Counted from the stretch's first letter, positions 2,236-21,878 are shown. The stretch: DNA of 21,878 nt from Rhodothermales bacterium (GCA_040904565.1 JBBDTI010000058.1:75258-97135); one strand, 5' to 3'. The notes: generated by a model from the letters alone, not told the origin. Numbers and translations: made by a program.

Positions 2236-3750
2236 ATGCGCGTCGAATCGCCCCATCCAACCGCTTGCCCACGTTTCACCATGTTCAGTGTGGTGCTCCT
2301 GATGCTCGGCTGGGCGTCCGCCGTCCCTCGCCACGCCGCCGCTCAGGAAGCCCAGGGTCCGAACGTCGTCTTTATCTATATCGACGACATGGGGTGGTCC
2401 GACCTGTCCTACCGCGGCAGCACGTTCTACGAAACGCCTCGGATCGACAGGCTGGCAGCGCGCGGTATGCGGTTTACCAGCGCCTATGCCAATGCCCCAA
2501 ACTGTGCTCCGTCGAGAGCCAGTCTGATGTCGGGTGCCTACGCGCCGCGGCACGGTGTCTACACCGTCGGCGATCCGTGGAGGGCGCCGCCGTCCACCCG
2601 CCGCCTCGTTCCCCTGGAGAACCGGACGACGCTGGCGCCGGAGGTGATCACACTGGCCGAGGTCTTAAGGGATGCCGGCTACGCCACGGCCCATATGGGA
2701 AAATGGCACCTGGGTGAACCGGCGGGCATCACCGGCCGGGCCGGTAATGCCGGTTCAGACGGCAGCGCGTCGGCCGGGGGCGCCGGGCCGCTCGCTCAGG
2801 GCTTCGACGTCAACCTGGGGGGCACGCACGCCGGACATCCGCCCACCTATTTCAGTCCATATGACATCGCGACGCTGCCGGACGGTCCACCGGGCGAATA
2901 TCTCACCGATCGCCTGACGGAGGAAGCGCTCGCATTCATCGACGAGCATGCAGACGAGCGGTTCTTCCTCTACCTGTCTCATTACGCCGTGCACGTCCCT
3001 ATTGAAGCCCCGGAAGAGCTCACGGCGAAGTACGCCGGCAAGCCGGCCTGGCACGGCCAGCGGGATGCCGGGTACGCGGCGATGATCGAGCGCGTCGACC
3101 ACGGCGTCGGGCGCGTCGTCGACCGCCTTGACGAGTTGGGACTGACGGACGAGACGCTCATCGTTTTCACGTCGGACAACGGCGGACTCGGCGGGTACGC
3201 CTCGGCCGGACTCCCAGGCAGCCGGCAGGTGACGGATAATTATCCGCTCAAGGGGGGTAAAGGGCAGCTCTACGAAGGGGGGATTCGCGTGCCGACGTTC
3301 GTCGTCTGGCCCGGCACGGTCGAACCGGGTTCCGTTTCACATGAGCCGATTGTCGGGATGGATTTCTATCCGACGCTGGTCGAGGCGGCGGGTGCGGACC
3401 TGCCGCCCGATCAGCCCATCGACGGCGTAAGCCTGCTGCCCGTGCTGCAGGGTGGGGAGCTGGACCGCGAGACGCTCTACTGGTACTTCCCGGCCTACCT
3501 CGAGGCATATGGACGAGAAGGAGAGCGCACGACGCCCGCGGGCGCGGTGCGGCGCGGAGACGAGAAGCTGATATGGTTTTTCGAAGACGATCGGACGAAG
3601 CTCTACGATCTCGGCGACGATCCGGGCGAGCGTCGCGATCTGGCGGCTGAACGACCGGAACGCGTCCGCGCCCTCCGGCAACTCTTCGAAAACTGGCTGA
3701 TAGAGATGGACGCGCCTATGCCGCGCCCGAATCCCGATTACCGCCCGTAG
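2236..3750 (+). CDS. Exported formylglycine-dependent (Cys-type, S1) sulfatase; start may be ATG 2281
   Basis: PNVVFIYIDDMG, CAPSRASLMSG (CxPxR), GKWHLG, YAVHVP, FTSDNGG, KGGKGQLYEGGIRVP and LYDLGDDPGE. Signal-peptide-like N-terminus ending AAA-Q. Confidence 0.95.
   Translation: MRVESPHPTACPRFTMFSVVLLMLGWASAVPRHAAAQEAQGPNVVFIYIDDMGWSDLSYRGSTFYETPRIDRLAARGMRFTSAYANAPNCAPSRASLMSGAYAPRHGVYTVGDPWRAPPSTRRLVPLENRTTLAPEVITLAEVLRDAGYATAHMGKWHLGEPAGITGRAGNAGSDGSASAGGAGPLAQGFDVNLGGTHAGHPPTYFSPYDIATLPDGPPGEYLTDRLTEEALAFIDEHADERFFLYLSHYAVHVPIEAPEELTAKYAGKPAWHGQRDAGYAAMIERVDHGVGRVVDRLDELGLTDETLIVFTSDNGGLGGYASAGLPGSRQVTDNYPLKGGKGQLYEGGIRVPTFVVWPGTVEPGSVSHEPIVGMDFYPTLVEAAGADLPPDQPIDGVSLLPVLQGGELDRETLYWYFPAYLEAYGREGERTTPAGAVRRGDEKLIWFFEDDRTKLYDLGDDPGERRDLAAERPERVRALRQLFENWLIEMDAPMPRPNPDYRP
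2715..2757. repeat. Imperfect inverted repeat inside the sulfatase CDS
   Basis: tgaacc(ggcg)ggcatcaccggc-cgg-gccggtaatgccggttca: the arms pair except for a 4-nt bulge and one mismatch. Confidence 0.6.
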
Positions 3751-4021
3751 CCGATGGTCTTAGCGACTGACGTATGATGCAGCGCGAGCAATGTACCCTC
3801 CAGTGCAACTCGTAACGTAACGGAGCGTCGCCGTGGAAGATTGGACGGGAAATGTTGATATTGCGCGGATGTGATTTCGAACGGACGTGTCTACCGCAGC
3901 GTCCCGCCGTCGCTTTCTGTTTCGCGTTCTGAGCGCATATCCCATGCTTGCGTTCCGCGCTCGTTCGCTATCTCCGATCGACCGCTACCCTCGTTTACAA
4001 CGCCATCAAGATCTCTGTCAT

Positions 4022-6808
4022 ATGTCAATAAGACGTTCCATCGTATTCGTCGCCGCGCTGCTCGCATTTGTGATGGGCTGTTCGGGTCCCTCCACCGACA
4101 CAACCATGCAGGTGAAACCCGATGAAACCCGTTTTACGCCCGTCGTGCTGGCGGAAGGCGACGAGCTCAACGAGCCGATGGCCTTCGACGTACTCGGCGA
4201 CGGTCGCGTACTGATCGTCGAACGAAAGGGCGGCTTCAAGATGTACGTCCCCGAGACGGACAGCGTGCACCTGATCGACGACATTCCCGTCAACATTTTC
4301 TATACGAATCTGGAAGGGGAGACGCGCAATGCGGAGGAAGGCCTTGTCGGCGTCAGCGCGGATCCGGATTTCGATGAGAACGGGTGGGTGTACCTGCTCT
4401 ACGCTCATCCGGACGAGGCCAAGCACGAGCTTACACGTTTTACGCTCGACGGGCCGAACATCGTACCCGGCTCCAGGCAGGTCCTGCTGGACTTTCCCGT
4501 GCAGCGCCGACAGTGCTGCCATACCGGCGGCGGGATGACGTGGGACGCCGACGGCAATCTGTACGTTACGATCGGCAACAATACGAGCAACGACCGCGGC
4601 TCGCAGACGGACGAGCGTCCGGGGCGCGAACCGTGGGACGATCAGCGCGGAGCCGCGAATACGAACGACCTCCGCGGGAAGATCATCCGCATTCATCCGG
4701 AGAATGACGGCACGTATTCCATACCGGAGGGCAACCTCTTTCCGGAAGGGACGCCCAGCACGCGTCCGGAGATTTACACGATGGGTCACCGCAACGCGTG
4801 GCGCGTCTCCATCGACAGTGAGACGGGATACATGTACTGGGGAGAGGTCGGTCCGGATGCCCGCGAGGATACCGAGCTCGGTCCGCAAGGCTACGACGAA
4901 CTGAACCAGGCCCGCGGTCCGGGTAATTTTGGATGGCCCTACTTCGTCGGGGAGAATCACGCCTTCGCGTTCCAGGATTTCGTGCGCGATACGCTCTTGC
5001 CGCCGAAGGATCCCAACCATCCGATCAATACATCGGTGAACAATACGGGTCTGACGGAGCTTCCGCCGGCACAACCCGCCTTCATCTCTTACCCCTACGG
5101 CTATTCGGAGAAGTTTCCGGAAGTAGGAACGGGTGGGCGGAGTGCCAACGGCGGTCCGATCTATCACCGCGCCGACTTCGACGATCCGGAGCGGCCGTTT
5201 CCGGCGTATTATGAGGGAATGTGGCTCGTGTCGGATTTCTCTCGGGGATGGCTTATGGCGATCACGCTGGATGAGAACGGCGACTACGTATCGATGGAGC
5301 GCTTTCTGCCGGAATACCGTCCGGTCGAGCCCATCGACATGAAGTTCGGTCCGGAGGGCGATCTCTACGTGTTGGAGTACGGAGAGACGTGGTTTTCAGA
5401 CGGTCAGGAAGACAAGCTGGTTCGTATCGAATACAACGCGGGCAACCGCGCGCCGATAGCCCGCGTCTCGACGAGCGCCCGGGGCGGCAGCGTCCCGTTC
5501 GAGGTGGCGCTCTCCGGTGAGGGAAGCCACGACTACGATGGAGACGAGCTCTCCTATACGTGGGACGTCGCGCCGGCCCGCGGTGGGGAGGTTCGCACGC
5601 TGGAAGGGGCAAATCCGTCGATCACGTTCGACGCGGAGGGCGTGTACATCGCGACGCTGGAGGCAACGGATCCGTCCGGCGCCTCGAGCACCAGTGCCGT
5701 GCGCATCGTGGCCGGCAACACGGAGCCGAGCGTGGCGCTGCAGTTCGATGGGAATCAGACGTTCTTCTTCCCGGGCGAGCCGATCGCTTACGACGTGCAC
5801 GTGCGTGATGCGGAAGACGGCAGCCTGAGCGATGGCGGCGTATCCCCCGACCGCGTAGCGGTGACGATCGATTACGTTTCGCAGGGGCTGGATGCGGATG
5901 CGCTCGCCGATAGCGAAGGTGGCGAGGTTGGGGCAGGACGATTCGCCGTCGCCCAGCTGCTGATGAGCGGGTCGGACTGCGCCGTGTGCCATCAGCCGGA
6001 GGCTGCCTCAAACGGCCCGTCCTACCTGGCTATCGCCGAGCGCTATGCCGGCGACGACGGTGCGGCGGAACGCCTGGCTCAGAAGGTCGTCGAGGGCGGC
6101 ACCGGTAACTGGGAAGCGGAGACGGTCATGCCCGCGCACCCGGCTCTGTCGATAAACGATGCGCGCACGATGGTCGACTATATTTTGAGCGTCGGTAACG
6201 AGTCGGCCGGCTCGCTCCCCGTATTCGGCACGTACGTGCCATCCGTTCCGGAGAACGATTACGGGCGCGGCTCCGTCATCATGCGCGCCGCCTACACCGA
6301 CCGAGGCGCTGGAACGCTTCCGTCGCAACGATCCGAGCACACGGTCGTGCTTCGCAGCCCGATTCTCGATCTCGGGTCGGACGACGAGGTTGAAGGCGCG
6401 CGGATGGAGGCAGGCGGACGTGGAAGTGGGCCTATGACCATCATCCCGCAGCATGGCGGACATGCCGCATTCCGGAACATCGATCTGACGGGCGTCGGCC
6501 GCATCGACGTAACGGCGTCGGCCAGCTCGCGTACGGGTGATGCGGGTGGAACGGTCGAAGTTCGCCTGGGCGGTCCCACCGGCATGCTGCTCGGCGAGGT
6601 CGTGGTGGATGCGCCCGATCCCGAGGCGGGCTTCCGCCGCGGACCGGATCCCGTACAGAGCGTCCAGGTGTCCGGAGCCGAAGGCCATCAGGACCTCTAC
6701 CTCGTCTTCAGGAACGACGCCGTCAATCCCGATCAGCCGCTCATGTCGCTCTCGCGCGTCGAGCTCGTGCACGCGAGCAATACCGCGGATGGGATGGCGG
6801 TGCGGTAG
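4022..6808 (+). CDS. Lipoprotein: PQQ-dependent glucose/sorbosone-dehydrogenase-type propeller + PKD + class I cytochrome c + CBM6-like domain
   Basis: ATG 4022 (in frame with ORF 3887) gives MSIRRSIVFVAALLAFVMG-C, a lipobox. GSDH motifs: EEGLVG..DPDF, QCCHTGG, DLRGKIIRI, MGHRNAWR, GNFGWPY, DMKFGPEGDLYVLEYG. PKD: SHDYDGDELSYTW. Heme motif CAVCH with distal MPAH. C-terminal FRNIDLTG..VEVRLGGPTG..HQDLYLVF. Confidence 0.88.
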   Translation: MSIRRSIVFVAALLAFVMGCSGPSTDTTMQVKPDETRFTPVVLAEGDELNEPMAFDVLGDGRVLIVERKGGFKMYVPETDSVHLIDDIPVNIFYTNLEGETRNAEEGLVGVSADPDFDENGWVYLLYAHPDEAKHELTRFTLDGPNIVPGSRQVLLDFPVQRRQCCHTGGGMTWDADGNLYVTIGNNTSNDRGSQTDERPGREPWDDQRGAANTNDLRGKIIRIHPENDGTYSIPEGNLFPEGTPSTRPEIYTMGHRNAWRVSIDSETGYMYWGEVGPDAREDTELGPQGYDELNQARGPGNFGWPYFVGENHAFAFQDFVRDTLLPPKDPNHPINTSVNNTGLTELPPAQPAFISYPYGYSEKFPEVGTGGRSANGGPIYHRADFDDPERPFPAYYEGMWLVSDFSRGWLMAITLDENGDYVSMERFLPEYRPVEPIDMKFGPEGDLYVLEYGETWFSDGQEDKLVRIEYNAGNRAPIARVSTSARGGSVPFEVALSGEGSHDYDGDELSYTWDVAPARGGEVRTLEGANPSITFDAEGVYIATLEATDPSGASSTSAVRIVAGNTEPSVALQFDGNQTFFFPGEPIAYDVHVRDAEDGSLSDGGVSPDRVAVTIDYVSQGLDADALADSEGGEVGAGRFAVAQLLMSGSDCAVCHQPEAASNGPSYLAIAERYAGDDGAAERLAQKVVEGGTGNWEAETVMPAHPALSINDARTMVDYILSVGNESAGSLPVFGTYVPSVPENDYGRGSVIMRAAYTDRGAGTLPSQRSEHTVVLRSPILDLGSDDEVEGARMEAGGRGSGPMTIIPQHGGHAAFRNIDLTGVGRIDVTASASSRTGDAGGTVEVRLGGPTGMLLGEVVVDAPDPEAGFRRGPDPVQSVQVSGAEGHQDLYLVFRNDAVNPDQPLMSLSRVELVHASNTADGMAVR

Positions 6809-6895
6809 GTAGCAAGTAGATCGCGTAGGAAGCGCGATATCACTTCCGGCGGGTCGCCGGTTGTACCTCCCCCGCGATTTTGCGAATATGTGGTT

Positions 6896-7017: not shown

Positions 7018-10000
7018 GTGCGCGGACTGCTTACTCTCGCCGTTGCTCTCGTACTTTCGGCGAGTCTGTCGTACTGCCACCAGGAGGCAGGTTTACCGGA
7101 TCCGGGAACGGACGCATATAGCGACGCCGTGTCGGCATTCTATGCCGGACTGGCCGGTATCGAGGCGGGCGCCCATCCGCATGCTGAGGATCGCTTCCGG
7201 CGGCTCTCCGAGCTGGCGCCGGAGGAGCCGGCAGGGTGGATGAACCGGGGACTGCTCGCGCTTCGAGAGAACCGGTTGGATGAGGCTGCGGAGCTGCTGG
7301 ATCGGGCTCGACGCCTCGCGCCGGAAGAGGCGCATGTTTATTACCTGATCGGCATCCTCGAACGACGTCGGGGGCGGGTGGACGAAGCCTCCGCTCAGTT
7401 TCGACGAACGCTCCAGCTGGATCCCGGCCATCTCAAGGCCGCTTACGCACTCGTTCAGATCCTCGAGCAGCAGGAACGCGCCGAAGCCGAGCGACTCCTC
7501 GACAGCCTGCTGCAATCTCGCCCCGACCACCTCGTACTGACCGTAGAACGCGCCCGCCTCGCAGCCGAGCAGGGTGATGCGGCTGTGGTCGAGGAAATGC
7601 TCGACAGGCTCGCCGGCATGGCGGGGGGCGGAGACGCCTGGCCGCAGGAGCTTCAAGATCGGCTGTCAAACCTTCGCGAGGCCGCGGCCAGGAACGATGG
7701 GAGCGGGCTGTCTCAGGAAATCGCGTATCTGAAGAACGACTTCCAACGCGTTCCGAGCTATCGCGAGCAGCTGGCGGACGTGGAGGAGGCGGCTGGACGG
7801 GAAGGCGCGCCGATCACGCGGTTCGTCCGACTCCCCGTCCCGCGTACGACGACGGCGGATCCGGACACGGCGATGTACTTTACGGCGGACTCGCTCGCGA
7901 TCGACGGCGGACCGTGGGATTGGGTGCGTCCCCTTCCCCTCGCCGGAGATCGGGTACTCACGCTGGCCGTGGCAAACGGGCAAACCGTCAAGCTGGGTAC
8001 GGGCACGTCGTTCCCGTTTCCCGGCGGCCCCGCGGCCGTCCCGCCGGGGCGCAACGGCATCACGGCCGCAGACTGCGATAACGACTACCGGGCGGATCTG
8101 GTGCTGGCCGGGGAGGGCGGACTCCGGCTATACCGGCAAGAGCGCCTGGACACCTTCAACGACGTAACCGCCGAGATGAATCTGCCGGAGGACGTTCGGG
8201 ACGGGGACTATTCGGGCGTGTGGGCGGTGGATCTCGATATGGACGGAGATCTCGACCTGGTGCTTTCGTCTACCGTCCAGCCGACACGTGTTCTGGGAAA
8301 CGACGGCGACGGTACGTTCACGCCGTGGGCGCTGTTCGATGAGACGGACGACGTGGTGGACTTCGTCTGGGCGGATCTGGATGGTGACGAGGTGCCCGAC
8401 GCCGCACTGCTCGACGCGAGTGGCGGGCTGCACGTCTATCGCAACCTGCGCACGGGGCGTTTCGAGGCGCTCGATTCGCCGAGCCGCGGCGGCGGTGTCG
8501 TGCTCGCCGTTACGGCGGCCGATCTCGACGGCGACGGTCGTATGGAGCTCGCCGGTCTGGAGGTCGGCGGTGCGATGGCTCGCTACTCCTTCGCCGGCGG
8601 CAGCTGGACGCGCGTGACCGTCGCACGCTGGGATGGGATGCCGGAAAGCCCTTCCGTCGCCACACTGTTTGCCGCAGACCTCGATAACAACGGTGGAGTC
8701 GACCTCCTCGCGGTCGTACCGGGTGGAGGGCAGACGTGGCTGGCTGATGCTGACGGACGTCTGGTGCCCGCATCCATTTCCGTCGCCCCGCGCGTGTTCG
8801 ATGTGGCGGACCTCGGAGGAACCGGCCGGCTGGACCTGATCGGCCTTTCCTCGGGTGGACAACCCGTGCGGATGATCAACGTAGGCGTCCGAAACTATGC
8901 GTCGAAAGGAATCCAGCTCAGAGCCGAACGTACTACGGGGGATCGGCGCATCAATTCGTTCGGTATCGGTGGGACGGTCGAGATCCGCTCCGGCCTCCTG
9001 TATCAGAAACGCCGTATTACCGGTCCCGTGGTGCACTTCGGACTCGGAGAACGCGACGTGGTCGATGTCGCTCGCATCATCTGGCCCAACGGTACGTCGC
9101 AGGTGGAGTTCGACCTGGAAACGGATCAGACCGTGCTCGCCCAGCAGCGCCTGAAGGGGTCCTGTCCATGGATCTTCACGCACGACGGAACCGGCATGCG
9201 ATTCGTCACCGACTTTCTCTGGCGTACGGCCCTTGGTCTGCGCATCAATGCACAGCCGGGAACGAACGTGATCCACAGTGTGGACTGGGTCAAGATCGAC
9301 GGCGATCTGCTTCGGCCGCGGAATGGATTCTACGACGTCCGCATTACCGCGGAGCTGTGGGAAACCCACTTCTTCGACCACGTAGCGCTCATGACGGTCG
9401 ACCGTCCGGCCGGCGTCGGCGTGTTCGTCGACGAGCGGTTCGTGCTGCCGGCTCCGGACCCGGAGCTATTTGCCGTCGCTCCTCTCCGGTCCGTGGCGGG
9501 AGCTTGGGACCACCGCGGGCGCGCCGTGACCGACCTCGTTCGTGATCTCGACGGACGATATCTGGACACGTTCGACCTCGGTCCGTACCAGGGCGTGGCG
9601 GAGCCGCATTTCGTGGAAGTCGCGTTGGGCGACGGCGCGGCGGAATCAGGGCCGATCCGTCTCGTTGCTTCCGGCTGGGTTCGTCCAACCGACAGCTCCA
9701 TCAATCTGGCCGTCGCACAGGGCTCGCACGACCCCCCGCGCGGACTGCGGCTAGATGTGCCCGACGGAACCGGCGGGTGGAAGACCGTCGACTCCGATCT
9801 CGGGTTTCCGGCAGGCAAGTCGAAGACGATCGTGATCGATCTGGATGGCGTATTTCCACCAGATGTGTCCCCCCGAGTGCGGCTTCACACGAATATGGAG
9901 GTTTACTGGGATCGGATTGCCTGGTCCGTCGAAGCTCCGCAAGCGGAGCTGCGCACGGAGCGGATCGTTCCACACGCCGCCGAGCTCCGCTATCGCGGCT

Positions 10001-10461
10001 TCTCCACGGTGCGGCAGGACGGACATTCATCTCCGGAGCTGCCCGATTATGACGCGCTCACCGCCACGTCGCCGCAGTGGCTCGATCTCAGCGGCTATCA
10101 TACCCGCCTCGGCGACGTGAGCGAGCTGGTCGGACAGGTCGACGACCGGTACGTCATCATGAATGCGGGCGACGAACTGGCGTTGACCTTCACGGTGCCG
10201 CGACCTCCGCCGGATGGATGGGTCCGCGATTTTGTGCTGATCGGCGACGGCTGGGTGAAGGACGGCGACTTCAATACGGGCCACTCGGCTACCGTTCGCC
10301 CCCTTCCTTACCACGGACTGACGGATTACACGGCGCCGCCCGGACGGCTCGAAGACGATCCCGTCTTTCAACGTTTCCCACAGGACTGGGCCACCTATCA
10401 CACGCGTTACGTTACGCCCGGTCCGTTCCGGCGCGCCTTGGTCCCCGTTCAACATCCATGA
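7018..10461 (+). CDS. Exported TPR + FG-GAP/VCBS repeat + ASPIC/UnbV protein with a ~430-aa C-terminal domain of unknown function
   Basis: GTG start after AGGGGG, hydrophobic leader ending LSY-C. TPR helices (GWMNRGLLAL..AAELLDRARRLAP; VYYLIGIL..DEASAQFRRTLQLDP). Repeated DxDxDG motifs. UnbV-type NSFGIGGTVEI..VHFGLG..RIIWPNG. Then KGSCPWIFTHDG and the tail domain. Confidence 0.85.
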   Translation: MRGLLTLAVALVLSASLSYCHQEAGLPDPGTDAYSDAVSAFYAGLAGIEAGAHPHAEDRFRRLSELAPEEPAGWMNRGLLALRENRLDEAAELLDRARRLAPEEAHVYYLIGILERRRGRVDEASAQFRRTLQLDPGHLKAAYALVQILEQQERAEAERLLDSLLQSRPDHLVLTVERARLAAEQGDAAVVEEMLDRLAGMAGGGDAWPQELQDRLSNLREAAARNDGSGLSQEIAYLKNDFQRVPSYREQLADVEEAAGREGAPITRFVRLPVPRTTTADPDTAMYFTADSLAIDGGPWDWVRPLPLAGDRVLTLAVANGQTVKLGTGTSFPFPGGPAAVPPGRNGITAADCDNDYRADLVLAGEGGLRLYRQERLDTFNDVTAEMNLPEDVRDGDYSGVWAVDLDMDGDLDLVLSSTVQPTRVLGNDGDGTFTPWALFDETDDVVDFVWADLDGDEVPDAALLDASGGLHVYRNLRTGRFEALDSPSRGGGVVLAVTAADLDGDGRMELAGLEVGGAMARYSFAGGSWTRVTVARWDGMPESPSVATLFAADLDNNGGVDLLAVVPGGGQTWLADADGRLVPASISVAPRVFDVADLGGTGRLDLIGLSSGGQPVRMINVGVRNYASKGIQLRAERTTGDRRINSFGIGGTVEIRSGLLYQKRRITGPVVHFGLGERDVVDVARIIWPNGTSQVEFDLETDQTVLAQQRLKGSCPWIFTHDGTGMRFVTDFLWRTALGLRINAQPGTNVIHSVDWVKIDGDLLRPRNGFYDVRITAELWETHFFDHVALMTVDRPAGVGVFVDERFVLPAPDPELFAVAPLRSVAGAWDHRGRAVTDLVRDLDGRYLDTFDLGPYQGVAEPHFVEVALGDGAAESGPIRLVASGWVRPTDSSINLAVAQGSHDPPRGLRLDVPDGTGGWKTVDSDLGFPAGKSKTIVIDLDGVFPPDVSPRVRLHTNMEVYWDRIAWSVEAPQAELRTERIVPHAAELRYRGFSTVRQDGHSSPELPDYDALTATSPQWLDLSGYHTRLGDVSELVGQVDDRYVIMNAGDELALTFTVPRPPPDGWVRDFVLIGDGWVKDGDFNTGHSATVRPLPYHGLTDYTAPPGRLEDDPVFQRFPQDWATYHTRYVTPGPFRRALVPVQHP

Positions 10462-10480
10462 AAGAACCGTTCGAACTTCT

Positions 10481-10503
10481 CCCTCGCACATACCTTGTGA
10501 GGG
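10481..10503 (+). terminator. Possible terminator or processing hairpin after the TPR-VCBS gene
   Basis: ccctcgca[catacct]tgtgaggg, an 8-bp stem 20 nt after the stop codon. No U-tract follows. Confidence 0.3.
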
Positions 10504-10568
10504 CAACGTAAAGTTAGGGGGAAAATATGGTACAGTTTGAATTTCTCCTCAATTTGGACGATGTTGGA

Positions 10569-10686
10569 GTCAGGTTTAGAGGAACCTGGACCGTAGTTCC
10601 GTCAGAACGATGACCTGCTTTAGGGTCGTCTGAGTGTTCGAGCGTACGGAGATGTCCTGCGTGATCAATCAAAGGGACACTCAACC
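10569..10686 (+). promoter_or_regulatory. Putative structured 5' leader of susC
   Basis: Stems caggtt/aacctg, ggaac/gttcc, tccgt/acgga, tcag(a)acga/tcgtctga, and tgtcct/gggaca, which overlaps the SD-like AAGGGA. No known riboswitch consensus was recognised. Confidence 0.3.
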
Positions 10687-13725: not shown

Positions 13726-15405
13726 GTGTCTGATCACAGATATATCCCAACTTGTTCGTTCCTCGTGGCGCTGTGCGTGGCCGCTCTGCTCGCGTCGTGC
13801 ACGGATCTGGTGGAGCCGATCGACAGCCAGGTCACGACGGAGAATTTCTTCCAGACCGATCAGCAATTCGTCTCGGCGCTGGGCGATGCGTACAGCGCGC
13901 TCACGGCCGTTGGAGGCGGGGGTGCCCCCGCGCAGCTGAACGAGGCGACGACCGACGAAGTGATTGTCCCCGCTCGCGGTCAGGACTGGTCGGAGGGCGG
14001 TTTCTGGTACCGCGTGAACAGTCACCGCTGGACGCCGTCGGACGGCACGTTCAACGGGTTCTGGCAGAGCTACTTCTCCGGCGTGAATAACGCGAACCGT
14101 CTCATCTTTCAGATAGAATCGGCGGTGGAGTCGGGAGCGGCGGATGCCGGCGTGGCCGCGACGTTTATCTCGGAGTTGCAGGCGATGCGCGGGTTCTATT
14201 ATTACTGGCTGCTCGATGCGTTCGGTAACGTTCCCATCGTGACCAGCTTCGCGGATGCGGATCCCAACCCATCGCAACCCTGCAGCGCGGGCCCGCAGTG
14301 CTTCGATGAAGGACGGTTGGAAGTCTTCAACTTCGTCGAACAGGAGCTCGTCGATAATATTAATAACCTGAGCGACGACGTACGGTCGACGTACGGACGG
14401 ATGAATGTGTACGTCGCGCACATGACCCTGGCCAAGCTGTATATGAATGCCGAGGTCTACACCGGTACGCCGCGATGGAACGACGCCCTGACGCACCTTA
14501 ACGCGATCATCAATTCGGGCCAGTATAATCTGGCCGCCAATTACCACGATAATTTCGCGGTTCAGAACGAAGGCTCGCCGGAGAATATATTCGTGGTGCC
14601 GTACGACAAGGTTTTTCTTACCGGGTTTAACCTGAATATGATGACGCTGCACTACGGCAGCCAGAACACCTACAATTTCCAGAATCAGCCCTGGAACGGA
14701 TGGTCGGCGACGCAGAAGATCTACGAATCGGTCATCGACCCCGAGCAAAATCCGGGTCCGCAGGGTGACGTCTGGGGGACGCAGCCCACCTCATCGGATG
14801 CCGGACTCGAACGCGTGCAGGGGACGCTCGACGATCGGGTAGGTAATTTCATTATCGGACCGCAGTTTACGGCGGCCGGTGCGAGAATTACCGACAGCGG
14901 CGTGTTTTCTGATTTCGACCTGAACGGTCCGCCGTTAACCTTCACGCCGGCCGTAAACGATCTGGAAGCGGTCGCCTGCCGGCAGTGCGGCGCACGCATC
15001 GGCAAGTACGCATTCGAGATGGGCGGTGGGCCCAACCTGAGCAACGATTTCGTCATTTACCGCTATGCCGACGTGCTGCTTATGAAGGCGGAGGCTCTCT
15101 GGCGTCAGAATCCGGGCAGCGGAGAAGCGCTCGCTCTGGTCAATCAGATTCGGACGCGCTCCGGCGTGGATCCGTTTTCGTCGCTGGACGCCGATAAGAT
15201 CCTCGCCGAACGCGGACGGGAGCTGTTCTGGGAACAGGTTCGCCGGCAAGATTTGATTCGATTCGACGGCATAGAGGGCGGACAAACGCGCTACAACGAC
15301 CCGTGGCAGTTCAAGCCGATCTCCGAGGCTCATCGGAACGTAGCGCCGATCCCGACGGACCAGCTCCAGACGAATGCCAATCTGGTTCAAAACCCGGGTT
15401 ATTAA
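13726..15405 (+). CDS. susD: SusD/RagB-family nutrient-binding lipoprotein
   Basis: Directly follows susC. Lipobox LAS-C, ELQAMRGFYYYWLLDAFGNVP, LAKLYMNAEVY, YRYADVLLMKAEA, ILAERGRELFWE..RRQDLIRF and terminal QNPGY. Confidence 0.97.
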   Translation: MSDHRYIPTCSFLVALCVAALLASCTDLVEPIDSQVTTENFFQTDQQFVSALGDAYSALTAVGGGGAPAQLNEATTDEVIVPARGQDWSEGGFWYRVNSHRWTPSDGTFNGFWQSYFSGVNNANRLIFQIESAVESGAADAGVAATFISELQAMRGFYYYWLLDAFGNVPIVTSFADADPNPSQPCSAGPQCFDEGRLEVFNFVEQELVDNINNLSDDVRSTYGRMNVYVAHMTLAKLYMNAEVYTGTPRWNDALTHLNAIINSGQYNLAANYHDNFAVQNEGSPENIFVVPYDKVFLTGFNLNMMTLHYGSQNTYNFQNQPWNGWSATQKIYESVIDPEQNPGPQGDVWGTQPTSSDAGLERVQGTLDDRVGNFIIGPQFTAAGARITDSGVFSDFDLNGPPLTFTPAVNDLEAVACRQCGARIGKYAFEMGGGPNLSNDFVIYRYADVLLMKAEALWRQNPGSGEALALVNQIRTRSGVDPFSSLDADKILAERGRELFWEQVRRQDLIRFDGIEGGQTRYNDPWQFKPISEAHRNVAPIPTDQLQTNANLVQNPGY

Positions 15406-15432
15406 GCAGTTATTCGATCTTTGAGGACTGGT

Positions 15433-16293
15433 ATGTGGATGGTATGCTCGGTTCGGCATTCGCTGCCGCCTCTAAACGTACGCCGGTTACCTCTCGTGTC
15501 GCTGATCGTTGCCGTACTGGTTGTTTGGTGTCTGCAGCCCGTACGCGCGCAAGTAGGGGATGTCTCGGACAAGGTGCTTCTGGCGGTCTTCGCCCATCCC
15601 GACGACGAGAGCACCGTGGCGCCGGTGCTGGCCCGTTACGCGCGAGAAGGAGCGAACGTGGTGCTGGTTACGGCGACGGATGGGCGCCTCGGCACCAACG
15701 AATATTCCGATCTCCCGGCGGGCGACGAACTCGCGGCGGTTCGACGAGGAGAGATGGAATGCGCGGCCTCGGCGCTGGGTGTGGAGCTGATACACCTCGA
15801 TTATTACGATCAGTTCAACTCGCAGGAAGGGTATGACGGCTTCATGCCGCAGCTTCAGGGCGTGATTCGCGATATCCATCGCATCATCGAAGAGCGCACC
15901 CCTGACGCCATCGTGACGTTCGGCCCGGACGGCTTCTCCAATCACATGGATCATCGCCTCGTCGGTTCGTCGGTCACGCAGGCACTGGTCAGCACGGAGT
16001 GGGAAACGACGCCCGCCCTCTACTTCGTGGGGATGCCGGCTTCCCAGTTCTCCGATGAGGAGCGCATCCTCCGGGGCGTGCAGGAAAAATATCTTACGGT
16101 GCGCGTTCCTTACACCGATGAGGACGGCCGCGCGGCCATCGAGTCGCTGCGGTGTCATACGTCGCAGTTCCCGCCCGATTTCGTGGAACGGCGAGCCGCT
16201 CGTGAGGCGGAAACAGAGAACCTCATCTACTTTCGTCCCTTCACGGCACCCACGGGCCAGTCTGGCGACCTGTTCGCACCGCCGTCACCATGA
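15433..16293 (+). CDS. Exported PIG-L/LmbE-family de-N-acetylase
   Basis: AVFAHPDDE, ATDGRLG, VRRGEMECA..LG, VTFGPDG..HMDH and CHTSQF. GAGGA lies 5 nt before ATG 15433. Hydrophobic leader ending VRA-Q. Exact start is uncertain. Confidence 0.9.
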   Translation: MWMVCSVRHSLPPLNVRRLPLVSLIVAVLVVWCLQPVRAQVGDVSDKVLLAVFAHPDDESTVAPVLARYAREGANVVLVTATDGRLGTNEYSDLPAGDELAAVRRGEMECAASALGVELIHLDYYDQFNSQEGYDGFMPQLQGVIRDIHRIIEERTPDAIVTFGPDGFSNHMDHRLVGSSVTQALVSTEWETTPALYFVGMPASQFSDEERILRGVQEKYLTVRVPYTDEDGRAAIESLRCHTSQFPPDFVERRAAREAETENLIYFRPFTAPTGQSGDLFAPPSP

Positions 16294-16463
16294 CGAGGAT
16301 ATGACTGAAGTGCCCGCTAGCGGACGGCCCACTTACTGCCGGCACAATTGCGCTTCATTTTGCTGATGTCGTGTGGGGGTCAGCCTGGTTCAGCCTTCTT
16401 CCGGCTCCGCTTCGTGAATCTCTCCCCTCCTTAATCTCAGTATCTCTTTACCGTCGTTTAACT

Positions 16464-18374
16464 ATGCGTGTGAGCCGCGGTAGACCGATCGAGGGCCTCG
16501 CTGGGATGCTCGTGCTGCTGTTCCTCATCGGGTGTGGGGGAGAAGAAGCGGAGGCATTGTTCGAGAAAATGTCCTCCGCCCGTACCGGTGTTTCCTTTGC
16601 CAACGTGCTTACTCCGACCGAGGCGCTGAATACCTACCTGTTTCGCAACTTCTACAATGGGGGCGGCGTGGCGATCGGCGATATCAATAACGACGGTTTG
16701 CCCGACCTCTTCCTTACCGGCAATCAGCGGTCGAACCGACTGTATCTCAATAAAGGCGATTTTGTATTCGAAGACATCACGGAGGCGGCCGGCGTGGCTT
16801 CGGAGGGACTCTGGTCGACGGGGGCCGTGATGGCGGACGTGAACGGAGACGGCCTGTTGGATATTTATGTGTGTAAGTCGGGCCCGCCCGGTGGAGCGCG
16901 ACGATATAACGAACTCTATATCAACAACGGAGATAAGACGTTTACGGAACGGGCGCGCGCCTACGGACTGGACGTGGCCGGACTCTCGATTCACGCCGCT
17001 TTTTTCGATTTCGATGGAGACGGTGATCTGGATATGTATCTACTGAGCAATCCCGTCCGGTCTCTCGACGACCTGCGGCGACAGCCCGGACTCCGGTCGA
17101 TCCGAGACCCGGGCGGAGGGAATCGCCTCTTTCGTAATGAGCTAATTCCGCATGAAAAGGGCGCCGACACTGCGGCGTTCGATGGGCCCGTCTTTACGGA
17201 CGTGACCGAAGAGGCAGGCATTTACAGCAGCCGGATCGGCTTCGGACTGGGCGTCTCCGTCGCCGACGTCAACCGAGACGGCTGGCCCGACGTTTACGTG
17301 TCGAACGACTTTTTCGAGCGAGATTACCTGTACATCAACCGCGGTGACGGTTCGTTCGACGAGGTGCTGCTGGACGCCATGCCCGCCATCAGCCTCAGTT
17401 CTATGGGCGGGGACGTCGCAGATATCAATCACGACGGCTATCCGGAACTGTTCGTGTCGGATATGCTGCCCGACCGGACTGACAGGCTGCATGCTAAGGC
17501 GTCGTTCATGTCCTGGGAAGAGCACGCGTCACTCGTCGCCGACGGATACCATCATCAGTTCACCCGGAACACGCTCCATTTGAATCGGGGAGCGGATTCG
17601 GGATCTATCGAGAACGGCGGCACGGCGCGCTCCGTCCGATTTAGCGAGATCGGCCGGCTCGCCGGCGTGGAGGCGACGGACTGGAGCTGGGGCGGACTCT
17701 TCGCCGACTTCGATCTCGACGGCCGGCTCGACCTGTTCGTGCCCAACGGGATCTACAAGGATTTGCTGGACCAGGATTTTCTGGAGGAGGCGTCAGACCC
17801 GGCCGCGCTGCGCGCCGTCATGGCGGGGGAGGAGGAGCCCATCATGTCGCTGCTCGACCGGATTCCGTCCACGCCGTTATCCAATCATATGTTCGAAGGC
17901 CGCGAAGGCCTTGTGTTCGATGACGTGAGTTCGGCGTGGGGCGTGGATGAACCAGGCTTTTCAAACGGAGCAGCCTACGCGGATCTGGACGGGGACGGCG
18001 CGCTCGATCTCGTCGTCAACAACGTCAACATGGAAGCGTTCGTCTACCGCAACCGGGCCGCCGAATGGTATCCGGATCGAGCGTGGCTCCAGATCGATCT
18101 CGCCGGCCAGGCTCCGAATGCCTTTGCCGTTGGCACGCAGGTAACCGCCTGGTCGAGCGGCCGGCAGTGGTACGTCGAGCAACAACCCGTGCGCGGCTTC
18201 CAGTCGACCGTGGACCACACCCTGCACATGGCGTTCGGAAAGCGGCTTCCATCCGGCCGGCTCGATTCCCTCGTCGTACGGTGGCCGGACGGGCGTATCG
18301 ATACCTATCTCGACGTCGCGACGAACGATCGAATCGAGCTCGCTCCGTTCGACCGAACCGGAGGCGCCCGATGA
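16464..18374 (+). CDS. VCBS/FG-GAP repeat + ASPIC/UnbV (CRTAC1-like) lipoprotein, short form
   Basis: ATG 16464 gives a leader ending LIG-C. NFYNGGGVAIGDINNDG, multiple DxN/DxDG repeats, SNDFFERDYLY, SMGGDVADINHDG, ATDWSWG, FSNGAAYADLDGDG, and UnbV RGFQSTVD..VRWPDG. The stop follows the UnbV domain. Confidence 0.9.
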   Translation: MRVSRGRPIEGLAGMLVLLFLIGCGGEEAEALFEKMSSARTGVSFANVLTPTEALNTYLFRNFYNGGGVAIGDINNDGLPDLFLTGNQRSNRLYLNKGDFVFEDITEAAGVASEGLWSTGAVMADVNGDGLLDIYVCKSGPPGGARRYNELYINNGDKTFTERARAYGLDVAGLSIHAAFFDFDGDGDLDMYLLSNPVRSLDDLRRQPGLRSIRDPGGGNRLFRNELIPHEKGADTAAFDGPVFTDVTEEAGIYSSRIGFGLGVSVADVNRDGWPDVYVSNDFFERDYLYINRGDGSFDEVLLDAMPAISLSSMGGDVADINHDGYPELFVSDMLPDRTDRLHAKASFMSWEEHASLVADGYHHQFTRNTLHLNRGADSGSIENGGTARSVRFSEIGRLAGVEATDWSWGGLFADFDLDGRLDLFVPNGIYKDLLDQDFLEEASDPAALRAVMAGEEEPIMSLLDRIPSTPLSNHMFEGREGLVFDDVSSAWGVDEPGFSNGAAYADLDGDGALDLVVNNVNMEAFVYRNRAAEWYPDRAWLQIDLAGQAPNAFAVGTQVTAWSSGRQWYVEQQPVRGFQSTVDHTLHMAFGKRLPSGRLDSLVVRWPDGRIDTYLDVATNDRIELAPFDRTGGAR

Positions 18375-18490
18375 ACGACCGCTCCTACGTGAACGATCGA
18401 GCCGCATACGTAAATGACCGACGCGCATGCCGCTGGGCGGTTGGTCGCATGACGTCCGGTCTCCTCGGTCGCATGACGCCCGGTCTCCTC
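18371..18490 (+). repeat. Two short tandem repeat sets: 3 x 18-21 nt (18371-18430) and 2 x 24 nt (18443-18490)
   Basis: MNDRSY/VNDRAAY/VNDRRAC; ggtcgcatgacgtccggtctcctc / ggtcgcatgacgcccggtctcctc (1 mismatch). Confidence 0.85.
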
Positions 18491-19057
18491 GGCCTCGCCC
18501 TGCTCCTCGTCGGCCTCTCCACGTCAGCCTGCGGCGGCCGGTCGGACTACGAACGCATGGTCGATCGGGAGCTGGCGCGGGGCGTCGAGTACAACGAACT
18601 GTTTCTTGGATACGAGCTCGGCATGAGCCGGCAGGCATTCTACGACCGCGGCTGGGAGCTGAATCGACAGGGACTCGCCATACAGGGACCCATGAATCAG
18701 TCCGTTCAATACGATCTGGACGACATGCTGCCGCACCCGGCTAAGATGTACTATTATGCCGATTTCCACGACGACCGGGTGTTTCAGATGCGCGCTCGAT
18801 TTGTATATGACGGATGGGCGCCGTGGAACAGAAATTTATCGGCTGACAGTCTGCAGGTCGATGTCGTGTCGCTGTTCACGGAATGGTATGGCGACGGCTT
18901 CGTCGAACGCGGCAGCGGACGCGGCGACCTCCATTATGTCAAAGTCGACGGGAATCGACGCATCGTCGTGGCGAAGCAGTCGGACAGTGAAGTGGTTGCC
19001 GTCTTTACCGATCTTGCCGTCGAGCGAACGCTGGGCGAACGAGACGATCAGAAATAG
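18371..19057 (+). CDS. Hypothetical lipoprotein; true start may be ATG 18449 or 18473
   Basis: ATGA overlap with the upstream stop, hydrophobic stretch ending TSA-C, and a globular aromatic-rich mature part (LFLGYELGM..FY..WELN..YDGWAPWN..VKVDGNRRI). The ORF-track extension to 18065 overlaps the upstream gene. Confidence 0.8.
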   Translation: MNDRSYVNDRAAYVNDRRACRWAVGRMTSGLLGRMTPGLLGLALLLVGLSTSACGGRSDYERMVDRELARGVEYNELFLGYELGMSRQAFYDRGWELNRQGLAIQGPMNQSVQYDLDDMLPHPAKMYYYADFHDDRVFQMRARFVYDGWAPWNRNLSADSLQVDVVSLFTEWYGDGFVERGSGRGDLHYVKVDGNRRIVVAKQSDSEVVAVFTDLAVERTLGERDDQK

Positions 19058-19074
19058 ATCTCCGCAATAGAAAA

Positions 19075-21878
19075 ATGGCGGCATCCTACCAGTCCACCGG
19101 CACGCCAGGTCCCGCTCTTCCTCCCCGCGGCCTCGTCCGCCGCCGCCGCAGTCCGGCGATCGTTGCCGCGACCGTCGCGACTGGGATCGTCATGCTTTCA
19201 ATCCTGCTAGCTGCCTGCGGTGAGCGTCCGTCCACCCCCGACGAGCATCTGTTCGAACTCGTACGTCCCTCCGACACGAACGTCGACTTCGTGAATACGC
19301 TGGGTTACGAGTACGCCTTCAATATTTACAGGTATCGAAATTTCTACAACGGAGGGGGCGTCGCGCTCGGCGATGTCAACAACGACGGATACCTCGATAT
19401 CTTTTTCACGGGGAATCAAGTCCCCAACCGCCTCTACCTCAACAACGGCGATTTTACGTTTACGGACGTCACGGACGTCGCCGGCGTGCAGGGACGTCGC
19501 GCCTGGTCGACGGGCGTAAGCATGGTGGACGTCAACGGTGACGGCCGTCTCGACATCTACGTCTGCAATGCGGGGATCGTCGAAGGAGACAACAAGAAGA
19601 ACGAACTCTATATCAACAACGGCGATTCCACCTTCTCCGAGCGGGCCGCAGCGTACGGTATCGCCGACGCCGGACTGTCCGTCCACGGTTCGTTTCTGGA
19701 CTACGACCGCGACGGCGATCTCGACCTGTATCTGGTCAACAACTCGTACAGAAACATAGGGAGCTTCAATCTCGAGGAGAATACGCGCCACGTTCGGCAC
19801 CGGGCCGGGGGAGATCGGCTCTATCGCAATGAGCACGTTCCGAAGCGTTCCCAGCCGGATGACGGCTCGGCAGGATCGGGGCACGTTGCGCAAGCCGGGT
19901 ACGTCGGCGTACGCACCGCTAGCGGCCGTTCCGACGCCAGCGCCGACCCACGTTTCGTCGATGTCAGCGCAGAAGCCGGGATCTACGGGAGCGAGATCGG
20001 ATTCGGCCTCGGCGTCTCCGTAGGAGATCTGAACCGCGACGGGTGGCCGGATATGTACGTTTCGAACGATTTCTTCGAGCGGGACTACCTCTACCTCAAC
20101 AATCGTGACGGGACGTTCAGCGAGGTGTTGGAAAGGAGCATGCACGCCGTGAGCGCGGCGGCCATGGGGGCGGATATGGCCGACCTGAACGGCGACGGCT
20201 ATCTGGATGTGTTCGTTACCGATATGCTCCCGAAGGAAGAGCACCGGATAAAGACCGTGTCCGCCTTCGACAACTGGGAACGGTATCAGCGCTATATAGG
20301 CGATGGCTACTATCACCAGTTCACACGCAATACGCTGCAGCTCAATCGTGGTCGGCGTCCTGCAATACGGTCGGACCGAGCCGACGGTGCGGTTCGACCC
20401 GTTGCCTTCAGCGAGATCGGACGCCTGTCGGGCGTCGAGGCCAGCGACTGGAGCTGGGGGGCGATGATCGCCGACTTCGATCACGACGGATACCGGGACC
20501 TGTTCGTGGCTAACGGGATCTATCAGGATCTGACCAATGCGGATTACCTCGTCGAAATCCGGGACGAGAACACGATGAACGAGATCATCCGGGGCAACGT
20601 GGTTGATTTCGAGCGGCTCATCGACATGATTCCTTCGAATCCCATCGCGAACCACCTGTTCGCGGGCCGGCCGGAACTCCGGTTTGAGGAAGTAACGGAC
20701 GCCTGGGGTCTCGGTACGCCCGGGTTTTCCAACGGGTCGGCCTATGGGGATCTGGACAACGACGGCGATCTGGATCTCGTCGTCAACAACGTCAACATGA
20801 TGCCCTTCATCTATCGAAACCGGACGGCCGAACGGTACCCTGAACGCGCCTGGCTTCAGGTCGAGCTCAAAGGGTCCTATCCCAATACGTTCGCCGTCGG
20901 CGCCCAGCTCACGGCGTGGTCGAGCGGGCGGCAGTGGTACGTCGAACAGCAGCCCGTGCGCGGTTTTCAGTCTACGGTGGACCATACGCTGCACCTCGGC
21001 CTCGGCACCGAGATCTCGGGCGGGCGGATCGATTCGCTCGTTCTCCGGTGGCCTGACGGGCTCGTCTCCAGGCTTGAAGACGTCGCCGTGAATCAGCGGC
21101 TCGACATCCGGCATTCCGGCACCGAACATTCCGAGCCGCGACCACCCTCCGTCGAGTCCGATCCCCTGCTGACCGAGCTGGTCGCTGCCGAGCTCGGCCT
21201 GGATTGGCGTCATCGCGAAAACGAACACAACGACTTCGAGCGGCAGCCGCTGCTTTTTCACATGCGCTCGACGGAAGGCCCCGCGCTATGTGTGGGCGAC
21301 CTGAATGGGGACGGGCGGGACGACGTGTTCCTGGGCGGGGCCAGAGATCAGGCAGGCGCCGTGTTCGTGCAACACGCCGATGGCACCTTCCGACGGCTGG
21401 AGCAGCCTGCACTGGAGGACGATCGCATCTCGGAGGATACGGACTGCGCCATGTTTGACGCGGAGGGCAATGGAGTCCTCGACCTCTATGTGGCCAGTGG
21501 AGGGAGTGAGTTTCCATCGAGCAGCTCCGCGCTCATGGACCGCCTCTATCTGAACGACGGAACGGGTAGTTTCGTGCGTTCCGACCAGCCGCTGACGGCT
21601 GCTGGAGGCGGATTCGAACCGACGGGCGTCGTGGAGGCGGCGGACGTCGACGGGGACGGTCACGTCGATCTCTTCGTGGGTGCAAGGATGCGCCCCTTCG
21701 CGGTCGGTATGTCGGCTGACGGACACCTGCTGCTCAACGACGGTGCGGGGACATTCCGCGAGGTGACGGACGAACGGGCGCCCGAGCTCCGCGGACTCGG
21801 CATGGTGACCGACGCAGCCTGGACGGACGTGGATGGGGACGGTGACCTCGATCTGATCCTCGCGGGAGAATGGATGCC
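19075..21878 (+). CDS. VCBS/FG-GAP repeat + ASPIC/UnbV lipoprotein, long form with a second propeller region (partial, runs off the window)
   Basis: Not in the ORF track because it has no stop. Frame 1 from ATG 19075: MAASYQ..MLSILLAA-C, RNFYNGGGVALGDVNNDG, SNDFFERDYLY, ASDWSWG, UnbV RGFQSTVD..LRWPDG, then HRENEHNDFERQPLLFHMRSTEGP..GDLNGDG, ending DVDGDGDLDLILAGEWM. Confidence 0.92.
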   Translation, partial: MAASYQSTGTPGPALPPRGLVRRRRSPAIVAATVATGIVMLSILLAACGERPSTPDEHLFELVRPSDTNVDFVNTLGYEYAFNIYRYRNFYNGGGVALGDVNNDGYLDIFFTGNQVPNRLYLNNGDFTFTDVTDVAGVQGRRAWSTGVSMVDVNGDGRLDIYVCNAGIVEGDNKKNELYINNGDSTFSERAAAYGIADAGLSVHGSFLDYDRDGDLDLYLVNNSYRNIGSFNLEENTRHVRHRAGGDRLYRNEHVPKRSQPDDGSAGSGHVAQAGYVGVRTASGRSDASADPRFVDVSAEAGIYGSEIGFGLGVSVGDLNRDGWPDMYVSNDFFERDYLYLNNRDGTFSEVLERSMHAVSAAAMGADMADLNGDGYLDVFVTDMLPKEEHRIKTVSAFDNWERYQRYIGDGYYHQFTRNTLQLNRGRRPAIRSDRADGAVRPVAFSEIGRLSGVEASDWSWGAMIADFDHDGYRDLFVANGIYQDLTNADYLVEIRDENTMNEIIRGNVVDFERLIDMIPSNPIANHLFAGRPELRFEEVTDAWGLGTPGFSNGSAYGDLDNDGDLDLVVNNVNMMPFIYRNRTAERYPERAWLQVELKGSYPNTFAVGAQLTAWSSGRQWYVEQQPVRGFQSTVDHTLHLGLGTEISGGRIDSLVLRWPDGLVSRLEDVAVNQRLDIRHSGTEHSEPRPPSVESDPLLTELVAAELGLDWRHRENEHNDFERQPLLFHMRSTEGPALCVGDLNGDGRDDVFLGGARDQAGAVFVQHADGTFRRLEQPALEDDRISEDTDCAMFDAEGNGVLDLYVASGGSEFPSSSSALMDRLYLNDGTGSFVRSDQPLTAAGGGFEPTGVVEAADVDGDGHVDLFVGARMRPFAVGMSADGHLLLNDGAGTFREVTDERAPELRGLGMVTDAAWTDVDGDGDLDLILAGEWM

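Follow-up and report, generated by a model that had tools for sequence, protein, structure and literature searches.

The 21,878-nucleotide stretch of DNA analysed here, referred to as the window, comes from a Rhodothermales bacterium (G000:C58:75258-97135, + strand; assembly of 4.02 Mb in 95 contigs, 61.5% G+C, 94.9% completeness) and carries a SusC/SusD-type uptake locus with lipoproteins of the FG-GAP and UnbV_ASPIC beta-propeller type. Comparison with related loci showed that the conserved unit is a cassette of six genes, encoding SusC, SusD, a propeller protein (A), a small lipoprotein and two further propeller proteins (B and C), and that the remaining neighbours are additions of particular lineages. 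In the original prediction, made from the sequence of the window, the locus had been described as one unit in which three propeller proteins take the place of glycoside hydrolases (GHs), accompanied by a sulfatase, a redox lipoprotein, a PIG-L deacetylase and an orphan lipoprotein. All of these genes were recovered by Pfam and NCBIfam searches of the window, co-oriented on the + strand and at their expected places (Table 1), but the limits of the unit had to be redrawn: one of the three propeller proteins, which also carries tetratricopeptide repeats (TPR-ASPIC), is not part of the core, and a fourth ASPIC gene, encoding C, lies just past the end of the window.

Core cassette and its distribution

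SusD was searched at protein level (E ≤ 0.001) in 61 genomes, the source genome and 60 relatives, and matches were found in 45 of them. Near-full-length SusD with 71-85% identity was present in four relatives (G005, G007, G060 and G043), and contig-end pieces in a fifth (G006). All five orthologous Rhodothermales loci carry SusC, SusD, the form of A of about 620 aa, an open reading frame (ORF) of about 200 aa, and B and C of about 1100-1200 aa. The order is rearranged in G043 and G060, where the block of A, the small lipoprotein, B and C stands ahead of SusC and SusD with an opposite-strand S9 peptidase gene in between, and the cassette of G007 is flanked by housekeeping genes (PheRS and a UbiE-type methyltransferase).

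The other neighbours are far less constant. PIG-L was found in two of the five orthologous loci, at the same position in G005 and G006, and is absent from G007, G043 and G060. The TPR-ASPIC gene adjoins SusC in one of the four assessable loci (G006) and is located elsewhere in the genome in G007, G043 and G060; the contig of G005 begins inside SusC and its TPR-ASPIC gene is on another contig, so that adjacency is not assessable there. Neither the sulfatase nor the glucose/sorbosone dehydrogenase-type (GSDH) lipoprotein adjoins any of the four assessable loci, both being beside the cassette in the source genome only, while TPR-ASPIC and PIG-L as neighbours are limited to the closest genera. A profile of the cassette propellers gave no match to the TPR-ASPIC protein at E ≤ 1e-10, and by sequence this protein belongs to a different ASPIC subfamily, outside the core cassette. 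The conserved linkage in other genomes on which the original prediction depended thus exists for the six core genes and not for the TPR-ASPIC, PIG-L, sulfatase or redox lipoprotein genes. The idea that the whole 30-kb co-oriented array forms one conserved operon was also considered and rejected, since relatives do not share the array.

Outside the Rhodothermales, loci were collected by a pattern scan of one genome per species with a 40-sequence alignment of A, which gave at least 632 stretches, 629 of them confirmed relatives, and 78 loci were kept. These were chosen by similarity to propeller A, and many of them are related to one another. They span Bacteroidales, Cyclobacteriaceae, Saprospiraceae, Chitinophagales, Cytophagales, Balneolaceae and Rhodothermales. 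SusD is directly ahead of an ASPIC gene in 48 of the 58 loci with at least 2 kb of upstream sequence, and of the ten loci that depart from this, three belong to Rhodothermales and have the rearranged order. Species of Belliella, Algoriphagus, Mariniradius and Fulvivirga are among the candidate culturable carriers. The recurrence of the SusCD-propeller linkage in Bacteroidota, stated in the original prediction, was therefore borne out. ORF clustering placed a small-lipoprotein family (about 204 aa) in 57 of the 78 loci, nearly always behind the first propeller gene. Twenty-one loci show exactly the order SusC, SusD, propeller, small lipoprotein, propeller, propeller, and another six do so with an additional SusC-like ORF behind it; the window together with the adjoining sequence L002 follows this order, with PIG-L inserted after SusD. 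Used as a marker, the small lipoprotein was detected in 25 of 301 sampled genomes and in 15 of 144 genera of the phylum, once per carrying genome. In a library of 1.84 billion proteins, 452 representative clusters belong to its family at E ≤ 1e-10, and the homologue search for relatives of the propellers returned at least 8000 candidates.

The source genome itself shows the same association. It contains 15 UnbV_ASPIC, 30 Plug and 2 SusD matches, with 11 of the ASPIC matches outside the locus, and an ASPIC gene stands behind both SusD genes, past PIG-L in the window and past a 231-aa ORF on contig C1. Since the genome has just two SusD genes, each with an ASPIC gene after it, this linkage is beyond chance. 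In 14 control genomes, Bacteroides thetaiotaomicron included, no match to PF07593 was found.

A variant of the locus occurs in G039 (L020/L021) and G058 (L024). Here SusD is about 41% identical, only two propellers are present, both C-like by best match, a PD-(D/E)XK gene stands between them, and the small-lipoprotein profile gave no match; in G039 a LacI gene lies upstream.

Propeller proteins and small lipoprotein

The phylogeny of the propellers was computed with FastTree (LG + gamma) from 99 propeller modules of 33 loci, namely the window and the 32 loci that pass a strict canonical-order rule (the other 46 being excluded), with three distant paralogues from the source genome as outgroup. 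C forms one clade with all 33 sequences, that of the window included (support 0.96), and A and B fall into separate pure clades of 29 sequences each. The four remaining Rhodothermales A and B sequences, again with those of the window, are sisters at the base of the A/B group (support 0.99). The purity of the A, B and C clades indicates that the paralogues are old and have been kept together. The short form of A (about 620 aa) is specific to Rhodothermales. The cassette propellers are also a distinct subfamily by profile score, with 658-1036 bits for A, B and C against 57-127 bits for ten other ASPIC proteins of about 600 aa in the source genome. Median identities between the window and non-Rhodothermales loci are 40% for SusC, 43% for SusD, 51% for A, 40% for the small lipoprotein, 50.5% for B and 45% for C.

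Across A, B and C, 107 columns are at least 90% conserved with an identical residue in the three proteins. These are mostly D, G and N, with E, Y, Q, R, W and S also represented, in segments such as FFERDYLY, YHHQATRN and WSWG. Loops of the calcium-binding type Dx[DN]x[DN]G number 7 in propeller A and 13 in C.

A structural model of propeller A (predicted local distance difference test, pLDDT, 81.6; predicted template modelling score, pTM, 0.88) matched mouse CRTAC1 (PDB 9ETN) with a Foldseek E of 2.8e-30 and a VIA Z of 36.4 (root-mean-square deviation, rmsd, 2.9 over 471 residues, 22% identity), followed by the LGI1 EPTP domain (Z 31) and generic propellers (Z 23-26). CRTAC1 was also matched by sequence, at E 8.1e-11 with the single protein and 1.2e-17 with the profile, and in a profile search of PDB sequences CRTAC1 and integrin alpha were the sole matches at E ≤ 10. 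A is accordingly modelled as a CRTAC1-like seven-blade propeller, so that the structural check proposed with the original prediction yielded a fold and no specific likeness to a known enzyme.

Members of the CRTAC1/UnbV superfamily include a marker of human cartilage and serum and a conserved gene of enediyne clusters, and to our knowledge no biochemistry has been described for the superfamily. Both CRTAC1 and the cassette proteins have an FG-GAP propeller followed by a UnbV_ASPIC domain; unlike CRTAC1, the cassette proteins are lipoproteins, and B and C carry a second propeller. The likeness lends no biochemical function to the cassette propellers. Full-text literature searches gave no study of function for bacterial ASPIC proteins, linked to SusCD or otherwise, or for the CRTAC1 structure, in agreement with the earlier statement that the function of these propellers is undefined.

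The small lipoprotein, taken at first for an orphan, is a member of a conserved family. A profile built on 57 loci matches it at 4.6e-71, as the sole match in the source genome, and the lipobox Cys is invariant in 34 sequences. Its model is of high quality (pLDDT 94.8), and Foldseek gave no match in the PDB at E ≤ 0.001. The best VIA score was Z 7.4, for an Rhs immunity protein, with DcrB, PsbP-like and 'double-wing' folds at Z 4-6; these values are too weak, and the naming of a fold from them was rejected. In the ESM Atlas, the protein matched unnamed Bacteroidota lipoprotein clusters only.

Within the locus, a lipobox Cys is present in SusD, in the three propellers A, B and C, in the small protein and in the GSDH protein. 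Lipoboxes recur across the related loci, in 32 of 33 sequences of A, 33 of 33 of B, 32 of 33 of C, 50 of 52 of SusD and 30 of 34 of the small lipoprotein.

Proposed role and alternatives

Taken together, the locus is considered, with somewhat better than even confidence, to be an ancient and self-contained uptake cassette of Bacteroidota, in which A, B, C and the small lipoprotein are the substrate-capture or processing partners of SusCD and to which extra genes have been added in this lineage. That the propellers are working partners of SusCD is very likely, in our reading together with the small lipoprotein and as obligate partners, and the substrate of the cassette is probably a carbohydrate. 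Regarding the earlier proposal that the propellers are the missing substrate-processing or binding parts of the system, the partnership stands, while nothing in the data shows replacement of GHs or enzyme activity.

The proposed mechanism starts with A, B, C and the small protein, which, from their lipoboxes, would be exported and lipidated and may sit on either face of the outer membrane. By analogy with Sus-like utilisomes, and in line with synteny and co-conservation, they may assemble with SusCD as a capture or processing layer. The calcium-loaded propellers would engage the substrate through a site common to A, B and C, as suggested by the Dx[DN]x[DN]G loops and the conserved E, Y, Q, R and W residues. 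Then, SusD and SusC would import the substrate with TonB energy, a step established for the SusCD family. Processing in the periplasm would depend on the lineage: here the exported PIG-L protein, and perhaps the sulfatase and the dehydrogenase, are candidates, and elsewhere GH37, GH13 or GH65 enzymes, a glucoside 3-dehydrogenase with a 3-keto-disaccharide hydrolase, or a vanadium-haloperoxidase homologue. The exported PIG-L, the sulfatase and the GntR/UTRA-SIS-PfkB genes hint at an N-acetylated substrate, judging by neighbours in one to three genomes.

The Sus-like systems, or utilisomes, of gut Bacteroides combine SusCD with surface glycan-binding proteins and surface enzymes. The locus in the window shares with them adjacent susC and susD genes followed by co-oriented lipoprotein genes, and differs from a classical locus of this type in having no GH or polysaccharide lyase (PL) genes. 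In addition, typical SusE/F-type binding proteins diverge much faster than the cassette propellers, which are 45-51% identical across orders. As for the regulator of a classical polysaccharide utilisation locus (PUL), none is found in the window; the nearest candidate is the GntR/UTRA gene 3.2 kb upstream, and in the related loci with enough flank a LacI-family regulator is directly upstream of SusC in 12 of 35.

The same cassette has been catalogued among predicted PULs. In Table S3 of Kappelmann 2019 (ISME J, PMC6298971), PUL103 and PUL116, from Flavobacteriaceae bacterium MAR_2010_105 and MAR_2010_119, are labelled 'trehalose' and given as LacI::SusC::SusD::ASPIC::hypothetical::ASPIC::ASPIC. 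PUL62 (Dokdonia), with GH13 and three ASPIC genes, is labelled 'alpha-glucan', PUL18 (Arenibacter) 'unknown', and PUL156 of Gramella forsetii, also 'unknown', has a glucoside 3-dehydrogenase, two FG-GAP proteins and a vanadium haloperoxidase (PMC6298971). According to the supplementary text, the trehalose call rests on GH37 and GH13; the substrate labels are predictions from neighbouring genes, and the ASPIC proteins are not discussed (PMC6298971). The gene order of PUL103 and PUL116 as tabulated (SusC::SusD::ASPIC/VCBS::hypothetical::ASPIC/VCBS::ASPIC/VCBS) is that of the window with the adjoining gene C, whereas LacI, GH37 and GH13, given for those PULs, are missing from this locus, and PIG-L, TPR-ASPIC, the sulfatase, the dehydrogenase and the short A of about 620 aa set the window apart. 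Since it is listed in Table S3 and the literature searches gave no functional study, the cassette can be regarded as catalogued but uncharacterised; an already characterised orthologous locus was not found, the orthologues being catalogued only. With GH37 and GH13 beside the same cassette in these PULs (PMC6298971), GH65 in three of the 78 loci and the LacI genes mentioned above, 'instead of glycoside hydrolases' was too strong a description.

Several observations weigh against the proposed role or its details. The surface-export signal, acidic residues behind the lipid-anchor Cys, is clear in SusD and weak in A, B, C and the small protein, which leaves these as candidates for either face of the membrane. 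Beyond CRTAC1, the fold matches of propeller A are generic propellers only, and we know of no binding or catalytic activity for any ASPIC/CRTAC1 protein, the mouse structure included. As the loci were selected for likeness to A, the identity figures of the propellers are overestimates. The published 'trehalose' label is not transferable to this organism, as GH37 (PF01204) gave no match in its 94.9% complete genome and its single GH65 gene and its GH13 genes are unlinked, on other contigs. No enzyme partner is constant, and the substrate class consequently rests on minority neighbours. One of these points away from plain sugar chemistry: an ORF of about 455 aa follows propeller C in 15 of the 78 loci (for instance L092:17297-18790) and is a close homologue of the vanadium-dependent haloperoxidase of Zobellia galactanivorans, an iodoperoxidase (4CIT, E 2.4e-143), with a weak Pfam PAP2 match (E 0.0012). 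A haloperoxidase or PAP2 gene downstream of such loci had been suggested for inspection with the original prediction. The homologue was not found in the source genome. Other recurrent neighbours among the 78 loci are a 3-keto-disaccharide hydrolase with PA14 (7 loci) and a TAT-signal GFO/IDH/MocA protein (5 loci). The flanks kept were short, about 5 kb upstream and 2-3 kb downstream of the cassette, and all these neighbour counts are therefore lower bounds.

Three other explanations were weighed. In one of them, the stronger reading of the original prediction, the propellers are new carbohydrate-active enzymes (CAZymes), for example calcium-dependent lyases or dehydratases, that perform the extracellular cleavage of GHs and PLs. 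In the flanks examined, GHs and PLs are missing from most copies of the cassette, the propellers are highly identical to their non-Rhodothermales counterparts (medians of 45-51% against 40-43% for SusC and SusD, in a biased sample), and polar and aromatic residues are kept across the three paralogues. Aldos-2-ulose dehydratase (PDB 4A7K) was, moreover, fifth in the wide fold search of A (Z 25.9, rmsd 3.3, 357 residues, 13% identity). However, this comparison of folds alone shows a common propeller architecture, with a Z tied with WD40 and generic propellers and far under the 36.4 of CRTAC1. In the profile search of PDB sequences at E ≤ 10, neither the dehydratase nor PL11 was found, and a PL11 chain was absent among the best 50 matches listed by each fold search of A. 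Both analogies, drawn in the original prediction, thus received no specific support. The conserved residues are mostly the D, G and N of calcium loops, and so structural, and in some loci the cassette adjoins ordinary GHs. New enzymes of this kind are considered unlikely.

Import or conversion of a non-carbohydrate substrate, for example a halogenated, phenolic or phosphorylated organic compound, is regarded as improbable; in this view SusCD would be an importer of general use, and the propellers would bind anions by way of calcium. The 4CIT-like ORF after C would fit such a substrate, as would the same haloperoxidase pairing tabulated for G. forsetii PUL156 (PMC6298971), the S9 peptidase within the G043 and G060 loci and the many calcium loops per propeller. 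Nevertheless, the haloperoxidase homologue is missing from the source genome and from most loci, LacI regulators and alpha-glucoside enzymes adjoin the cassette at least as often, and the S9 peptidase is on the opposite strand. Finally, FG-GAP/VCBS repeats are also known from adhesins and integrins, the second-best sequence match in the PDB is integrin alpha, and the source genome has the 11 further ASPIC matches outside the locus, all of which would agree with cell-surface adhesins or matrix proteins that share an operon with SusCD and have no role in transport. The fixed gene order and copy number beside SusD across orders, the marker present in a single copy in all 25 carrying genomes and the separate subfamily formed by the cassette propellers make this highly improbable.

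Genomic surroundings and significance

The genes of the window and the loci compared with it are collected in Table 1. The 2236 gene has the features of a formylglycine-type sulfatase, a sulfatase domain and a C-x-P-x-R motif (CAPSR). A TIGR04057 signature was also found on SusC by NCBIfam. For propeller A the likely start is 16506 (622 aa) or 16464, the latter being an in-frame ATG. The four ASPIC proteins of the locus score 33.2-69.9 bits with UnbV_ASPIC against a Pfam cut-off of 23.4. NCBIfam has no family for A, B or the small lipoprotein, and the frame 18065-19057 is the sole one among 11 window ORFs with no Pfam family. Gene B is interrupted by a 100-N scaffold gap (L002:2837-2936) right after the window end at 21878, with the same sequence of about 50 bp on both sides; two overlapping contig ends were left unmerged there, splitting B into ORFs of 978 aa and 328 aa. 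As the gap is flanked by this duplicate, the two ORFs are one gene, and the counterpart of B in G005 has 1213 aa.

Table 1. Positions of the genes of the window, of the adjoining gene C and of other loci mentioned in the text; unprefixed positions are those of the window.
Feature	Position	Strand	Domains and remarks
Sulfatase with SGSH_C	2236-3750	+	PF00884 8.6e-60, SGSH_C 1.4e-16; CAPSR at residue 90; signal peptide
GSDH + PKD + cytochrome c + CBM6 lipoprotein	3887-6808, likely start 4022	+	Pfam; one CAVCH haem motif
TPR + FG-GAP_3 + partial UnbV_ASPIC lipoprotein	7018-10461	+	Pfam
SusC/RagA-type TonB-dependent transporter, core gene 1	10687-13692	+	TIGR04056 8.9e-180; CarbopepD_reg_2, Plug, beta-barrel
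SusD-family lipoprotein, core gene 2	13726-15405	+	PF07980 3.6e-31, PF14322; lipobox LLASC
PIG-L family deacetylase, predicted, exported	15421-16293	+	PF02585 3.7e-26; signal peptide; insert between SusD and A
Propeller lipoprotein A, core gene 3	16371-18374	+	FG-GAP_3 1.4e-44, UnbV_ASPIC 2.4e-14; lipobox LIGC
Small conserved lipoprotein, about 194 aa, core gene 4	18473-19057, alternative start 18449	+	Family profile 4.6e-71
Propeller lipoprotein B, double propeller, core gene 5	19075-21878, past window end	+	FG-GAP_3 5.1e-70, UnbV_ASPIC 4.6e-17; lipobox LAAC
Propeller lipoprotein C, 1135 aa, core gene 6	L002:3804-7211, directly beyond window	co-oriented	UnbV_ASPIC
Second SusCD locus	G000:C1:23876-33373 (L103)		3-keto-disaccharide hydrolase, HEAT/cytochrome c, SusC, SusD, 231-aa ORF, 588-aa ASPIC, TPR protein, 191-aa Plug-only ORF
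Short Plug-type ORF	L103:14802-15377		
Short Plug-type ORF	L021:1250-1786		
Short Plug-type ORF	L022:15360-16037	-	
Short Plug-type ORF	L106:11300-11809	-	

GH, PL, peptidase and regulator families were not found by Pfam among the window ORFs, as the original prediction had stated; the GntR/UTRA regulator is beyond the window, about 3.2 kb upstream, co-oriented and with five genes in between. It opens a co-oriented run, from L001:15996 to window position 2170, of GntR/UTRA, SIS, SDR, FAD oxidoreductase (PF12831), phosphotriesterase-family and PfkB genes, which ends right before the sulfatase gene and looks like an amino-sugar or lactone catabolic operon. Downstream of C, an opposite-strand GT4 gene closes the co-oriented run. 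CAZymes immediately outside the window would have been a reason to abandon the earlier interpretation, and Pfam detected no GH or PL in 20 kb upstream and 13 kb downstream, where the sole CAZy-type match is this GT4 gene. PIG-L and CBM6 are CAZy-listed modules (CE14 and CBM6), and the absence of CAZymes is therefore valid for GH and PL only.

Transcription signals were not evident. Promoter and terminator scans returned fewer sites than in shuffled sequence, and TAnnTTTG had one match, within a gene. The 225-bp gap before susC (10462-10686) is locally A+T-rich amid 60-66% G+C and may hold a promoter of the cassette's own, though no consensus promoter site was found in it. The sequence is present in five DNA runs, four from sediment and one from a soil metagenome at a 0.06 share, and no RNA run was listed among those that carry it.

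Some features recur elsewhere in the source genome. At least five large paralogues of the GSDH, cytochrome c and CBM6 lipoprotein (E 1e-106 to 1e-195) are present on C11, C56, C59 and C60, and one of them lies between ASPIC genes, on C11; the architecture of the lipoprotein recalls that of fungal AA12 enzymes, which join a dehydrogenase, a cytochrome and a CBM. The TPR-ASPIC gene of the window resembles a fusion of the ASPIC and TPR pair present on C1, C11 and C21. In addition, short ORFs (about 170-230 aa) that match either a TonB-receptor Plug domain alone or the N-terminal part of SusC alone are found repeatedly next to ASPIC/SusCD loci of this genome and of its relatives, and could be stand-alone plugs or receptor remnants.

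A tentative extension of the proposed role, which we think is probably not correct, is that A, B, C and the small lipoprotein form with SusCD a fixed outer-membrane complex that works with no classical CAZyme, either as a new class of calcium-dependent enzyme or as a high-affinity capture device for small ubiquitous solutes, e.g. trehalose-type alpha-glucosides. If true, this would be the first biochemical function for the CRTAC1/UnbV superfamily.

The cassette was already catalogued among predicted PULs, and the window adds which of its genes are core and which are additions, with the former orphan as a core member. It is a widespread and discrete six-gene system of unstudied function, with a marker that is single-copy in each carrying genome, and it contains two large protein families without function, the propellers and the small lipoprotein. 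Its environmental relevance is indicated by SusC and SusD proteins related to those of the listed PULs, which according to the main text of the cataloguing study were strongly expressed in North Sea blooms (PMC6298971).

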